Positions 15,001 to 21,000 of a stretch of 64,000 nt of DNA are shown piece by piece. Source of the DNA: Escherichia coli (lineage in GTDB: Bacteria; Pseudomonadota; Gammaproteobacteria; Enterobacterales; Enterobacteriaceae); the NCBI RefSeq assembly GCF_030013205.1, contig NZ_CP122648.1. One strand, given 5' to 3'. How positions within the stretch are numbered: position 1 is the stretch's first letter; every line of letters starts with the position of its first letter. Position numbers: made by a program.

Positions 15001-18000
15001 GAATTTCCCGGCTGGAGCATCAACTCGCCGCCGAGAAAAAGACTGACTATTCCACGTTCCCGGAGATCTAATTATGGATCTATTGATCGTTTTAACTTAC
15101 GTGGCGCTGGCGTGGGCGGTCTTTAAAATCTTCCGCATTCCGGTAAATCAGTGGACGCTGGCGACGGCGGCGCTGGGAGGCGTGTTTCTGGTGAGTGGTT
15201 TGATTTTGTTGATGAACTACAATCACCCTTACACTTTTACCGCGCAAAAGGCAGTGATAGCGATCCCCATCACGCCACAGGTGACGGGAATTGTTACTGA
15301 AGTCACTGACAAAAATAATCAGCTTATTCAAAAGGGCGAGGTGCTTTTTAAACTCGACCCGGTCCGTTACCAGGCGCGAGTTGACAGACTTCAGGCTGAC
15401 CTGATGACGGCGACGCATAATATAAAGACGCTGCGCGCGCAGCTCACTGAAGCGCAGGCCAACACCACCCAGGTTTCAGCGGAGCGCGACCGTCTGTTTA
15501 AAAATTATCAACGTTACCTGAAAGGCAGCCAGGCGGCGGTGAATCCGTTCTCGGAACGTGACATCGACGATGCGCGGCAAAATTTCCTCGCGCAGGATGC
15601 GCTGGTGAAAGGCTCGGTGGCGGAGCAGGCGCAGATCCAGAGCCAGCTCGACAGTATGGTTAACGGCGAGCAGTCGCAGATTGTGAGCTTAAGAGCGCAA
15701 CTTACTGAAGCAAAATATAACCTTGAGCAGACTGTCATTCGCGCGCCGAGCAATGGCTACGTTACTCAGGTACTGATCCGCCCAGGTACATACGCAGCTG
15801 CCTTGCCGTTGCGTCCGGTGATGGTTTTCATCCCCGAGCAAAAACGGCAAATTGTCGCCCAATTTCGGCAAAACTCGCTGTTACGTCTGAAACCCGGCGA
15901 TGATGCGGAAGTGGTGTTTAACGCGCTACCTGGGCAGGTGTTCCACGGCAAACTGACTAGCATTTTACCTGTCGTGCCAGGCGGTTCTTATCAGGCGCAG
16001 GGGGTATTGCAATCATTAACGGTCGTGCCCGGCACGGACGGTGTGCTGGGAACCATTGAACTGGACCCTAACGATGATATCGATGCCTTACCCGACGGCA
16101 TCTACGCCCAGGTGGCGGTTTACTCCGACCATTTCAGCCATGTTTCGGTGATGCGGAAAGTGCTGCTAAGAATGACCAGCTGGATGCATTATCTTTATTT
16201 GGATCATTGAGGGGGGCGGGGGAGATTATGGAACTTTGCTCCCTGCAAGGACTAATTATTTTTGCATATTATTTCATCGGCTGTGATGATTTTTCGTTAA
16301 TATCCATTATGTTAAGAAGTTCGGGATGAGTGTGAACTCATTGGATTTTTTATCCGTCTTGATCTGCCGAAGGATCAGACTATACATTGTCGAGATCGCA
16401 ATGATGATATGAGTTGTTCCTCTGCCACGGCTCTAATCAAAAAAGAGCAGGAGTGCTTTTCCATCTATTGCGATGATGGCTTTATTATCTGAAGGATGAC
16501 AGTCACATTTAAAAATATTTAATTTATAGATCACAATGTAGGTTCATGTAATATATGTATACAACTATTTTTCTCTTCACTTTTAATTATCGTATTCATT
16601 ATAACACTAAGTTAAAAAAACTCCTGGAGAGTGAGTTATTAATATGTTTTTAAATATAATTAAGTTATTATTCATCGATGCATTTTATAGAATCATCAAT
16701 GGCTACAATAGTACTATTAACTCTCCAATTTATATTTTTATTATCATTGCAAATATTAACTGAATCTATATCAATGATTTTTTTATTTTTATCTTTTATT
16801 TTGTTTACAGTTTCAATGCAATCAGCGACAAGTTGGTGTGGATTTAGATTCTTCAGATATGGTCTTATGATCTTTCCCTTGCTTAATAAATAGCATGTAT
16901 AGGATTCGGAAAGTCCAGCATCTATTTTGTACATCATTATTCTAGATAAGGATGTGAGAAATGCCTTGTTATCATTAGCAGCCATATATGCCAGTCCGAG
17001 TTCAGCCTCTGCGGCTTTACATGAAAAATAGCTAAGTGAACACGCTTTTCGTCCCTCTTGGGTACTGGCTGATATTAGTGCCCATAATATTGCCTTGTCT
17101 GCCAAATCCAACTCTCTCTGAAATTGGTTTACAGTAACTGCATTCGCAGAAATAGAGAAGAAAAGCACAATTGTTAATAACCTTGTCATATTTCTAGTCC
17201 GTCACTGTTAATGTGCTATCTGGCTCTGAAAATATTAGCTCATTTAATTTTTGCATGTCATTAGATGAACCAGTTATACAACCCTCGGAACAGAATCGAG
17301 GTCCTAAAGATGGACCAAAAGCGTTTAAACAACTATGTGTTAAAAATCCATCACGATTATACGTTTCTGTATTTGCTGACGGTACTAAACGTATACCATT
17401 AGGTTTTCTATTGGTTGCTCCAGGACTGTTAAGCAAGCCTCGTCCGGTTTGCTTCATTGAGTTCTCCACTTTAGACTATTGGACTATCTTTCAACATGGC
17501 ATCGCCTTAGTATACCGCTGGTTTTCCGCTCATTGTTAATTTTCTCTTTCGTTCATTTCACTTAATTTTCAGTTTTTTCCAAAAGTCAATATTCCCTTCT
17601 AATAAAATTTTTTCTATGGAATCTTCATTAATTTTATTATTAGAGCATATGACATTATCTTGAACGCCATATGACACCACCCCGTTTTTATCAATATAAT
17701 ATCTGTCTTTACCATCAATAATATAAATCCTAACATTTTTATCATCAAAATGGTAACACTCATTACTAGACCTGTTCAGTAACATTAATAACTTCTCACG
17801 ATTTATCTGTAATAATTTTTGTGCACCATCTTTTATTGCAAAATTTTCAATTTTACTTTTAGTGACAGGGGAATATGTTTGGATGCGAAAAGGCATCCTA
17901 TAATGGAAAACATCAGCTATACAGCAAGATGAAAAAAATACGGAAATAAAATACAGACATACTTTCATACCATCTCCTAAACTGGTGATATATTAAAAAC

Positions 18001-21000
18001 ATACCCAAAAGCAATATAAAAATGTTTAATATTTCATTCTTGCTGGCAAGCCCAACTCTTTACGAAATGGGTTTTCATATTTATCAACATTAGCCATCGA
18101 GTCAGTTCCATCGTCTTTCATTCCCTTTGCATGCCCCATTTCATGCGCAAGAACCACACTCAACAGAGTGGGTTTCATGGCACATGCTTTGTTTTTTCCT
18201 TGATATACACATGAGCTATGGTCGTTATCAATATCAATGTAAAAACTATATTCAGTATCATCGTAGCATGTTTGGTTTATGCCTTTTCTTAATCCTCTAA
18301 ATATATATTCATGCTCTGATGACTCTAATTCTTCTGTTATTTTATGTCCAAACTTTGTTTCTGCTACAGCTTTATATGCTTCTTTTAAAGTTTTTTGTGT
18401 ACTTTCATCTCCCTGAAAAGACACTTTTAACCCTAATGGATCGAAACCAGATACCGGATTCAACGGATACTGATAAAAATTCCATCCCCCCTTAAGCCCA
18501 ATCGGATCCTGAGTGATATACCGCCCCTGCAGCGGGTCATAATAGCGGTGGCGGTTGTAATAGAGGCCGGACTCCTCATCATACTGCTGACCCGGCAGGC
18601 GGATGAGCTGCTGCAGCTGGTGCGGGTTCTCTTCATTCAGCAGGTTGCCCCATTCATCGTATTCTGCGCACCATTCTGTTGCCCCTTCCGTGCTGACAAG
18701 CGCCAGCGGCAGGCCGCGATGGTCGCAGTGGTACAGGTGGATTTTTCGCGCCGGCGTGTACACCGGGTCCATCTGGTTTTGTATCTGCTCCACCGTCAGG
18801 CCGCACGATGCCAGCCAGCGGCGGCTTTCCTCACTCACCCGGTCAGCCAGGATTTCACTTTCCAGCCGGTCGAGCATCTGCACCAGCACCGGCGGGAACA
18901 CCATACTGCCACCGTCTTCACCGCCGGACTGCTGAAGGGCATCCGCCAGGCTGCGGCGCTGCGTTTTCGCCAGCTCACCGGTGGCAGTTTCAACTCTGAT
19001 GAGTGGCGTGAAGCTCCCCGGCTGATAAACCGTCTGGATGCGGGTTCTGTCGTTCTGTATTGTGGTCAGCCGGTCGCCGTCCCAGCCGTACCAGGTCACT
19101 TCCGGTTTCCGTGACAGCGACATCCAGCCCGTCAGGTCCCGTTCACGCCGCCACACCCGTTTTGCCACCCTGCGGCCCAGCGGGTCGTAAAGATAGCGAC
19201 TTTCGACCAGCGGCTCTGCATACTGTGTCCGCGTGTAGTGCACCAGCCGGTGCCGGCTGTCGTAATGGTACCGGTGAGTCCGCTCATCATCCGTGCGGAT
19301 AACCCCTTCCGGGATGAGGTCGGTTTTCTCCGTCAGCCTGCCGTGACGGTCATACCGGTAAAGATAGTGCGCGTCACGGGCGATACGGTTATCCGGCCAC
19401 ATGCTGAGGGTGCTGTCCGGGTGCAGCTCCGGGTCGGGCAGGCGGTTGCCCGCCGGGTCCGTGGCATACGGGATGCGGATATCCAGATTCGCTGCGGTGG
19501 TGTGGACGCCGGTCAGCCTGCCGGTGTCGCTGTAGCTGTAACTCCGGGTCTGGCGCGGGCTGCTGATGCGGATGAGTTCGCCGTTGTCGTTCCAGGTGTA
19601 ATCGCGGTCATACTGCAGGCTGTTCAGGTGCTGGCTCTGTAACTGCCCGGCAGGGGTGTAAGCGGTGGTGAGTTCATAACGGCCGAAGCTGCGCAGCGTT
19701 TCCCGGTGCAGGCGGTCGCGGGTGTACTCCACCAGCGGTGTGTCGCCGAGTTTCATGCCTGACAGCCAGCCGCTGCCGTAGGTCAGCCATTCCACGGCGG
19801 GCAGGCTGTCCGGTATACAGCGGTTCGCCAGTCCCTGCGTGTTGTAAGCGTGTCTGGTTTCATGCTGCCAGAGCAGTGCTTCCGTCTGCGGATGATGCAC
19901 CGTCTGGCGCTCACCGGTCAGGCGGCCTTTCTCATCATACCCGTAATGCACCGTCACCCGGTGGCCTTCGCTGAGATGGCTGATGCCTGTCAGCCAGCCG
20001 CGTTCGTCATACTGCCACTGCTCTGCAGGTTCACCCTTCACGGTGCGGTGAGTGAGGCGGTCTGCTTCGTCATAGTGCCAGTGGGTGACCAGCCCCTCAT
20101 CCTCGCTGCGGATAAGTTTACCGGTCAGGTCGTGGTGATAACGCTGTGTGCGGCCGTCAAAGCCGGTTTCCTGTATCAGCCGGTCGAGTACATCGTAACG
20201 GAAGGTGGTGTGGCTGCCGTTTTCACTGGTCAGGCGGATGACCCGTCCGGCAGCATCGTATTCCATACTGCGCGTCAGACCGCCCTGTGTGGTACGGATG
20301 GCCTTTCCCCACGCATCGTACTGTGTCCCGTTTCTGCTGCCGTCCGGGGCAATGACGGCGGTCAGGTCACCGGCGGCGTTGTATTCATACCGCGTTTCAT
20401 GGCCCTGCGTGTCTTTCACCGCAATTAACTGTCCACGGCTGTCGTATGCGCGGTACTGACTCAGCCCTTCCTCGCGGTGCACCGCCGTCACCTGACCAAA
20501 ACGGTCATGGTCATAACGGGTTACATAACCGGAACAGTCAGTGACGGTCAGCAACTGACCGTAACGGCTCCATGTCATGGTTTTCCGGCTGCCGGTGGCA
20601 TCTTCCGTTGCGCAGGGTAAGTCACTGTGTGGATTATCATAACGGTAGCGGGTGATATCGCCGTTGTGTGCGGTTTCCTGAATCAGACGGCCGGATTCAT
20701 CATATTTGCGGCGCAACTCCAGCCCGTCAGTCCCGGTGGCTGACGTTAACTGGTTGTGGTGGTTATAGTAAAATGCCGATGCCCTGCCATCCGGTGTGGT
20801 GATGCGCGTGATGAGTCCCGTCACCACATCCGGGCTGTACTCAGTCGTCCGGCCTGCGGCATCCGTCTGTGCCTTAAGCCCGCCCACCGCGTCAAACTGA
20901 CTCTGCGTGACGCTGCCGTCCGCGTGTTCCTTTTTCACCACCCGCTTCAGCCCGCCTTCGCCCTGCGTGTGCAGCACTTCACGGCGGTCCAGACTGTCGG

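Follow-up and report, generated by a model that had tools for sequence, protein, structure and literature searches.

A sharp base-composition step in an Escherichia coli RhsA element as the probable join of the Rhs core and an exchangeable toxin/immunity payload

The rhsA locus of Escherichia coli raises the question of what a sharp change in base composition inside a single gene signifies. In the stretch of DNA analysed here (64,000 nucleotides of contig NZ_CP122648.1, RefSeq assembly GCF_030013205.1; hereafter the window), the rhs gene of an RhsA element passes from DNA rich in guanine plus cytosine (GC) to DNA rich in adenine plus thymine (AT) toward its 3' end. A preliminary description of the window took this break as the signature of horizontally exchanged toxin/immunity cassettes. 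That interpretation is supported, with refinements: the step is very probably the join of the GC-rich conserved Rhs core and the AT-rich exchangeable toxin/immunity payload at the rhsA site. Coordinates are positions in the 64-kb window, and the Rhs element reads on the minus strand. The element and those parts of it that concern the step are as follows.

16212-22347, minus strand: the whole RhsA element, 6136 bp, between yibH and yibF, delimited by alignment to the empty site of strain 536
22157-22347, minus strand: AT-rich leader of the element upstream of rhs, GC 0.356
18428-22156, minus strand: the rhs core, residues 1-1243, with DUF6531, YD/RHS repeats and the Rhs-associated core domain, GC 0.62
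18479-18522, no strand: 2-unit support interval of the GC change point, 44 nt, overlapping the first DPIGL motif (18494-18508)
18428-18457, minus strand: PxxxxDPxGL motif, residues 1234-1243, the core terminus and expected C-terminal self-cleavage site
18026-18427, minus strand: toxin tip, residues 1244-1376 plus stop (133 residues), resembling M91/HopH1 zinc metallopeptidases, with HEMGH and YEN

The composition step is real. When GC is computed by segment, it is 0.336 in 16211-18427 compared with 0.62 in the rhs core, and the window after removal of the element has a GC of 0.507. Within the AT-rich block, the values are 0.337 for a 457-bp stretch next to yibH, 0.337 for an Imm57 immunity gene, 0.395 for a 91-residue open reading frame (ORF), 0.282 for the 136-residue ORF that follows the tip (orf136) and ~0.36 for the tip. 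A 300-bp sliding profile runs at ~0.62 over 18.6-22.1 kb, falls to 0.21-0.40 over 16.3-18.4 kb and reaches ~0.53 in yibH. A two-segment maximum-likelihood fit, searched over 17000-20000, places the change point best at 18482 with a log-likelihood gain of 118 (permutation maximum 10.7, n=1000). With 400-bp flanks, the step near 18.5 kb (+0.255) ranks first in the whole window, and the next places are taken by the other two edges of the element, at 22144 (second) and at 16252 (third, jointly with a step of equal rounded size at 46538). The preliminary description had placed a sharp break at ~18.4 kb, with a GC-rich core on one side and an AT-rich tip, immunity gene and orphan ORFs on the other, and both points are borne out by the profile and by GC at the codon positions.

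The codon positions bear on the idea that protein composition produces the step, with YD repeats rich in Gly, Arg and Asp forcing GC and small proteins rich in Lys, Asn and Ile forcing AT. GC at the first and second positions does differ between the core (0.65/0.48) and the tip (0.46/0.34). However, the gap is largest at the third position, where the core has 0.73 and the tip 0.26 (orf136 and Imm57 have 0.26-0.29, and the host genes yibH, yibF and mtlA ~0.58-0.62), and the non-coding leader and spacer DNA of the element is AT-rich too. The shift is thus mostly synonymous and not an amino acid by-product, and protein composition is scarcely credible as its cause.

The step lies close to the end of the conserved core. 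The Rhs protein is encoded by an ORF of 1376 residues (18026-22156, minus strand), in which residues 1-1243 match NCBIfam RHS_core with 2620 bits (cut-off 2000) and Pfam RHS_repeat (expectation value (E) 1.3e-68) finds 10 repeat stretches. Nucleotide homology to other rhs genes ends at 18453 (rhsA of K-12 and O157) or at 18425-18428 (rhsA of strain 2013C-4282 and an rhsC locus), and the tip past PxxxxDPxGL is non-homologous to the tips of the other rhs genes compared. Among solved Rhs core chains, the last residue aligns to 1243 in 8qjb and to 1242 in 8h8a. Self-cleavage after PxxxxDPxGL is known for Rhs effectors (PMC8636562), and the two chain ends are in keeping with it. By analogy with these effectors, the window protein is expected to cleave itself after L1243. 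The compositional boundary precedes the 3' end of the core by 54 nt and follows directly on the first DPIGL. This offset recurs, as the GC change point falls 36-94 nt before the core end, directly past the first DPIGL, in five of five rhs genes (the window, K-12 rhsA, O157 rhsA, 2013C-4282 rhsA and a Hafnia rhs), in which the terminal ~18 core codons resemble the tip in composition. The final 18 core codons (18428-18481) are tip-like in composition (0.37 GC) and include four variable residues that vary among alleles with different tips. Position 18427, given earlier as the end of the AT-rich segment, is therefore right as the first base after PxxxxDPxGL and hence as the core end at the protein level, but the break in composition itself is at ~18482.

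Beyond the core end lies a strain-variable cassette of 995 bp (17433-18427), which contains the tip and the gene that follows it.

17558-17968, minus strand: orf136, 136 residues, with a hydrophobic signal-like N-terminus (by eye) and an AGGAG ribosome-binding site; candidate immunity protein

The isolated tip matches Pfam Peptidase_M91 with 31.6 bits (cut-off 25), has a zinc site, HEMGH, at residues 1338-1342 and carries YENP close to the C-terminus. HExxH with a downstream [DE]N is the signature of Tox-HopH1 (the NleD/HopH1 class), which has been found on RHS toxins (PMC3482391). A word-based protein search with the tip returned little beyond its own E. coli cluster, so that an exhaustive search was needed to find its relatives, 104 among 1.84 billion representative proteins. 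The M91 domain is C-terminal in most of these 104, whose lengths range from 50 to 2482 residues and whose named members include RHS/YD proteins. In a PDB sequence search with the tip, adamalysins matched at the level of the motif only, around HExxHxxG (E ~0.2), and these matches did not enter into the family assignment.

The start of orf136 is 57 nt downstream of the tip, and this neighbourhood is shared by other genera. The nearest tips, in Hafnia (61% identity) and Rahnella (43%), are each directly followed by an orf136 homologue, which is frameshifted in Hafnia and in Rahnella is a 123-residue ORF with its own signal-like N-terminus (E 2e-12). In E. albertii, a toxin-less homologue with 67% identity ends an rhs orphan array near fadE. 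Because its linkage to the tip is conserved across genera, orf136 is most likely, as judged from sequence, the partner immunity protein of the M91 tip. The partner looks exported, which suggests a periplasmic site of action for the putative toxin. We lean slightly towards grouping orf136 with its relatives from E. albertii, Hafnia and Rahnella as an unnamed exported immunity family directed against M91 Rhs tips. A 2024 preprint describes an E. coli Rhs protein with an M91 end and an unassignable downstream protein, and notes that such an effector has never been characterised (10.1101/2024.03.05.583533). Two further observations concern these relatives: the M91 tip of Hafnia alvei is a dissociated orphan behind a vgrG-linked rhs, and the E. 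albertii orphan array has a saw-tooth GC profile.

The distribution of the payload was assessed in 5426 complete E. coli genomes, to which all population counts refer. The 995-bp cassette occurs in 180 of them, always at 99% identity or more and with the whole arrangement common to all carriers. The remainder of the AT-rich tail, an older layer at 16212-17432, is present in 3726 genomes (69%), mostly at 90-95% identity (the K-12/O157 allele) and in 262 at 99% or more; the other genomes have an empty site or no close megablast match to the older layer. The older layer is as AT-rich as the cassette yet widespread, so composition marks the payload region as a whole and not its recent as opposed to its old part. 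The earlier claim that composition delimits the variable segment consequently stands for 17433-18427, which is rare, but fails for 16212-17432. The exchangeable cassette as such is upheld by the end of core homology at 18425-18453, by the presence of the tip and the next gene in only these 180 genomes and by the linked homologues in Hafnia and Rahnella.

The whole element is missing from some strains. In E. coli 536, only 70 bp separate yibH from yibF, and homology to the window stops at 16211 and restarts at 22348. The neighbouring genes (mtlA, yibI and yibH on one side; yibF, selA and selB on the other) are those of the K-12 rhsA site, on the opposite strand. Because the 536 site is empty over 16212-22347, the core and the tail are both accessory DNA and the GC break is internal to an island. 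The preliminary description had confined the accessory segment to the interval between yibH and the rhs core; the tail is accessory as it held, but so is the core. Could the step then be due mainly to a foreign GC-rich core, either the relic of a high-GC donor or the product of a family-wide bias, and say little about recent exchange in the tail? The core, which is missing from 536 with the rest, has a third-position GC of 0.73 compared with ~0.6 in host genes, ~11 of the 28-29 points of the step are due to the core exceeding the host average, a Hafnia rhs core likewise exceeds its flanks (0.57 versus 0.50), and 1.2 kb of the AT-rich tail is old and widespread. Yet the tail deviates more from the host mean (-17 points) than the core does (+11 points), the 995-bp cassette is rare and has linked relatives in other genera, and tips at the rhsA locus do differ between otherwise close strains. 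It is unlikely that the core is the main cause, and its contribution complements the join of core and payload and does not replace it. The relatives of the cassette have a GC of 0.38 in Hafnia (flanks 0.50), 0.43 and 0.33 in Rahnella (flanks 0.52) and 0.31 in E. albertii. As the cassettes of the relatives are AT-rich and their Rhs cores GC-rich relative to the flanks, the contrast belongs to the two gene pools of the Rhs family and not to this strain. As a separate observation on the core, the window allele is 12 nt shorter, in frame, at 21364-21501 than the K-12, O157 and 2013C-4282 alleles; the rhs ORF of strain CFSAN061763 is also 12 nt longer (1380 versus 1376 residues), and its tail is identical to that of the window.

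The older layer and its junction with the cassette contain several displaced or decayed pieces.

17498-17593, minus strand: stretch similar to the relic at the K-12 rhsD locus, with a relic of an rhs leader and start codon, ATGAGCGGAAAACCAGCGG, in it (significant part ~17515-17554); it overlaps the 3' end of orf136 (17558-17593)
17194-17432, minus strand: 3' remnant of a Tlde1-like (Tox-LD-peptidase) tip, ~77 codons plus stop, without the first 65 codons and without core
16668-17189, minus strand: intact Imm57 gene, 173 residues, with a signal-like N-terminus (Pfam Imm57, E 1.4e-44, 150.7 bits, cut-off 25)
16260-16520, minus strand: decayed ISAs1 (H-repeat) transposase fragment, ~80 codons with 3-4 in-frame stops, equivalent to the K-12 pseudogene yibU

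The 91-residue ORF (17194-17469) consists mainly of the last 77 codons of a 142-residue Tlde1-like tip. The window is 98.5% identical to strain 2013C-4282 over 16000-17432, where the homology stops, and in 2013C-4282 the 142-residue tip is intact on rhsA with Imm57 directly after it. That intact tip scores 34.9 bits with Tlde1_dom, compared with 20 bits for the stub in the window (cut-off 30.1). The stub retains the H...SxGC signature; it is a remnant and not a working Tlde1 member, and is unable to act as a delivered toxin. The Imm57 gene is, by K-12 annotation and alignment, the full-length form of K-12 yibV, and Imm57 is listed as the partner of Tox-LD-peptidase (PMC3482391). The 457-bp stretch at 16211-16667, previously called non-coding, proves to hold the transposase fragment known as yibU in K-12. 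The fragment matches NCBIfam transpos_ISAs1 over profile positions 68-133 of 314 (E 1.3e-11, 44 bits, cut-off 70) and is conserved in most element-bearing genomes; it is a relic and not an intact insertion sequence (IS). A plus-strand ORF antisense to the stub (17213-17539, 108 residues) has no family match and is taken as spurious. An Rfam scan of 15900-18700 (E up to 1) found nothing, and the AT-rich block is not enriched relative to shuffles in promoter-like sites (12 versus 10.8) or terminator-like sites (3 versus 1.4).

Such debris makes it conceivable that the AT-richness arose in place, as the mutational bias of E. coli towards AT acted on non-functional DNA under relaxed selection. The dead pieces of the tail are an ISAs1 fragment interrupted by stops, a toxin stub that is truncated and the relic of an rhs start, and the stretch with this last relic has a GC of 0.42 compared with 0.635 for its K-12 counterpart. 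However, the intact tip, orf136 and Imm57 have a third-position GC far under that of host genes, the break is sharp (its support interval spans 44 nt), and the homologous cassettes of Hafnia, Rahnella and E. albertii show the same AT-richness. Decay may add to the AT-richness of the dead pieces, but it cannot account for the intact genes or for the sharpness of the break, and as a general explanation it is very improbable.

How the payload was assembled can be proposed in outline. The older layer shares 98.5% identity with its counterpart in 2013C-4282, and the ancestor therefore likely resembled this strain, with an rhsA gene ending in a Tlde1-like tip and followed by Imm57. The incoming 995-bp cassette would have joined the core by homology at or near the conserved core end. 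It would have taken the place of the first 65 codons (190 bp) of the old tip, so that a dead stub and an orphan but intact Imm57 were left, with the older ISAs1 relic past them. The right junction at 17432 is without homology, and the homology of the tail breaks at 17424/17432. The relic between orf136 and the stub agrees with the start of the resident rhs in 18 of 19 nt, a score that none of 2000 shuffles attained; past these 19 nt the two are no longer significantly similar, since 618 of 2000 shuffles score as high. Over 40 nt it shares 87.5% identity with a relic of the K-12 rhsD locus, which is found at the far end of the rhsD element in ~2700 genomes. An rhs-start relic before the junction hints that the cassette once lay upstream of another rhs gene. 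A second rhs copy may accordingly have arrived in tandem (rhs-M91, orf136, rhs'-Tlde1-like tip, Imm57), after which an internal deletion would have fused the rhs-start relic to the last 77 tip codons. The position of the relic and its counterpart at the end of the K-12 rhsD element fit such a history, whereas the loss of similarity after 19 nt and the absence of an undeleted tandem form from the genome collection do not. The tandem history is possible but doubtful.

Under the favoured explanation, a join of core and exchangeable payload, we infer toxicity, immunity, periplasmic action, delivery and the order of the recombination events as follows. The product of the GC-rich part would be the conserved shell, built of YD repeats, of an Rhs polymorphic toxin. 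If it behaves like the solved Rhs effectors, the tip would be enclosed in this shell, the Rhs protein would undergo self-cleavage at the end of the motif, and delivery of the toxin into neighbouring bacteria would fall to a type VI secretion system (T6SS). The exported small protein would most likely neutralise the toxin in the periplasm of the producer.

Several results weigh against this explanation. All 180 carriers of the cassette have a single arrangement, and therefore no intermediates are seen. The displaced tip is without a core fragment, unlike the product of a textbook single crossover, so that a second, non-homologous junction or a later deletion has to be assumed. In sliding comparisons, the identity of the core to three other rhsA alleles ranges over 0.89-1.00 per 150 nt, a fine-scale mosaic in which no clean crossover tract is visible; the mosaicism is consistent with gene conversion among rhs paralogues. 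T6SS genes are absent from the window, neither a vgrG nor an EagR gene adjoins the locus there, and Pfam does not detect a PAAR domain at the N-terminus of the Rhs protein. With the whole Rhs protein as query, M91 reaches only 18.6 bits, under the Pfam cut-off of 25. Lastly, orf136 has no Pfam or NCBIfam match, and its signal peptide was judged only by eye.

The window has other features outside the Rhs element. At ~26330-27097, an IS1 links selB and yiaN by their 3' ends, with the last codons of both altered. It stands in place of ~16 kb (yiaY, aldB, yiaW, yiaV, yiaU, yiaT and the sgb/yia sugar genes). Seven of the 5426 genomes match at least 80% of a 1.6-kb junction query; the junction of porcine ETEC4079 is identical to that of the window, which places the window in the ETEC4079 lineage, and TOK-001, another of the seven, is just 95% identical and may carry a separate IS1 event. 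The yibI-yibH pair (DUF3302 and an HlyD-family protein; 14709-16210) is accompanied in other strains by a paralogous one at a distance of ~14 kb, yiaW-yiaV, which is deleted in the window. An IS3-family element with two ORFs (NCBIfam transpos_IS3) is located between ysaA and avtA at ~32034-33465 and is absent from CFSAN061763; we presume that it resembles IS150. Finally, positions ~1-8587 hold a very large gene for a YadA-like trimeric autotransporter with internal repeats. Its repeat content differs from that in CFSAN061763, and it is without the ISEc12 insertion that adjoins the gene there.

In practice, the step marks the end of the conserved Rhs shell and the start of the payload, and helps to delimit cassettes in unannotated sequence; it has little importance beyond annotation. 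Three cautions apply to such use: the step occurs ~54 nt before the true toxin boundary, AT-richness alone cannot separate a recent cassette from an old shared orphan layer, and the tail is no more foreign to the host than the GC-rich core. That Rhs elements combine a GC-rich core, an AT-rich extension and displaced tips has been known since the 1990s, and the present locus is one more, ordinary allele. Only two things are mildly new: the M91 tip together with the family of candidate immunity proteins, and the rhs-start relic found where the old tip was displaced. With its partner, the M91-type tip forms a candidate toxin/immunity pair that is so far uncharacterised. Inside eukaryotic cells, NleD and HopH1 act as type III effectors, and to our knowledge no role other than that of a type III effector targeting eukaryotic kinases is known for the M91 protease class. 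If the proposed immunity family is real, the NleD/HopH1-like class would also kill bacteria by cutting a periplasmic target.

One of the closest known systems is the RhsA element of K-12 (rhsA-yibA-yibJ-yibG-yibS-yibW-yibV-yibU), studied by the Hill laboratory (reviewed in PMC2935791), which occupies the same yibF/yibH site and has a mosaic core ~96-97% identical to that of the window. It shares the GC-rich core and AT-rich extension and, at ~94% identity, the distal layer composed of the part of yibW that is tip remnant, yibV/Imm57 and the yibU/ISAs1 relic. The K-12 element differs in having another tip with YibA as partner, an extra orphan module (yibJ-yibG) and a truncated yibV, whereas Imm57 is intact in the window. 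In the window, by comparison, the old tip is cut at codon 65 and is without a core fragment.

Jackson and coworkers (2009), in a summary of earlier Rhs work, describe a G+C-rich core with an A+T-rich core-extension, and a GC-poor downstream region with dissociated tips, in which GC peaks were used to delimit the tips and displacement by laterally acquired tips was proposed (PMC2935791). The window resembles that displacement model in that an acquired tip replaces the resident one, which persists downstream as a dissociated tip in a GC-poor trough. It departs from the model because its dissociated tip has neither a core fragment nor the hyperconserved region, with a short relic of an rhs 5' start at the junction instead. 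The solved T6SS Rhs effectors (Tse5, 8cp6; Photorhabdus Rhs1, 7q97; Salmonella bongori Rhs, 8qjb; RhsP, 8h8a) likewise have a YD-repeat shell, and the core in the window matches such structures as 8cp6 and 7q97, but their payloads differ from the tip in the window. With Tox-HopH1/Peptidase M91 proteins (NleD, HopH1 and XopG), the tip has in common HExxH, a downstream [DE]N and a C-terminal position on RHS proteins. In contrast to the eukaryotic setting of NleD and HopH1, a target in the bacterial periplasm is suggested here by a partner that appears to be exported. Zhang and coworkers listed no immunity family for Tox-HopH1 (PMC3482391). The older layer resembles Salmonella Tlde1/Tldi1 and Tox-LD-peptidase/Imm57, as the 2013C-4282 tip passes Tlde1_dom and in the window the stub is followed by Imm57. 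In contrast to Tlde1 systems, the stub comprises only the last 77 of 142 residues and is without a delivery domain.

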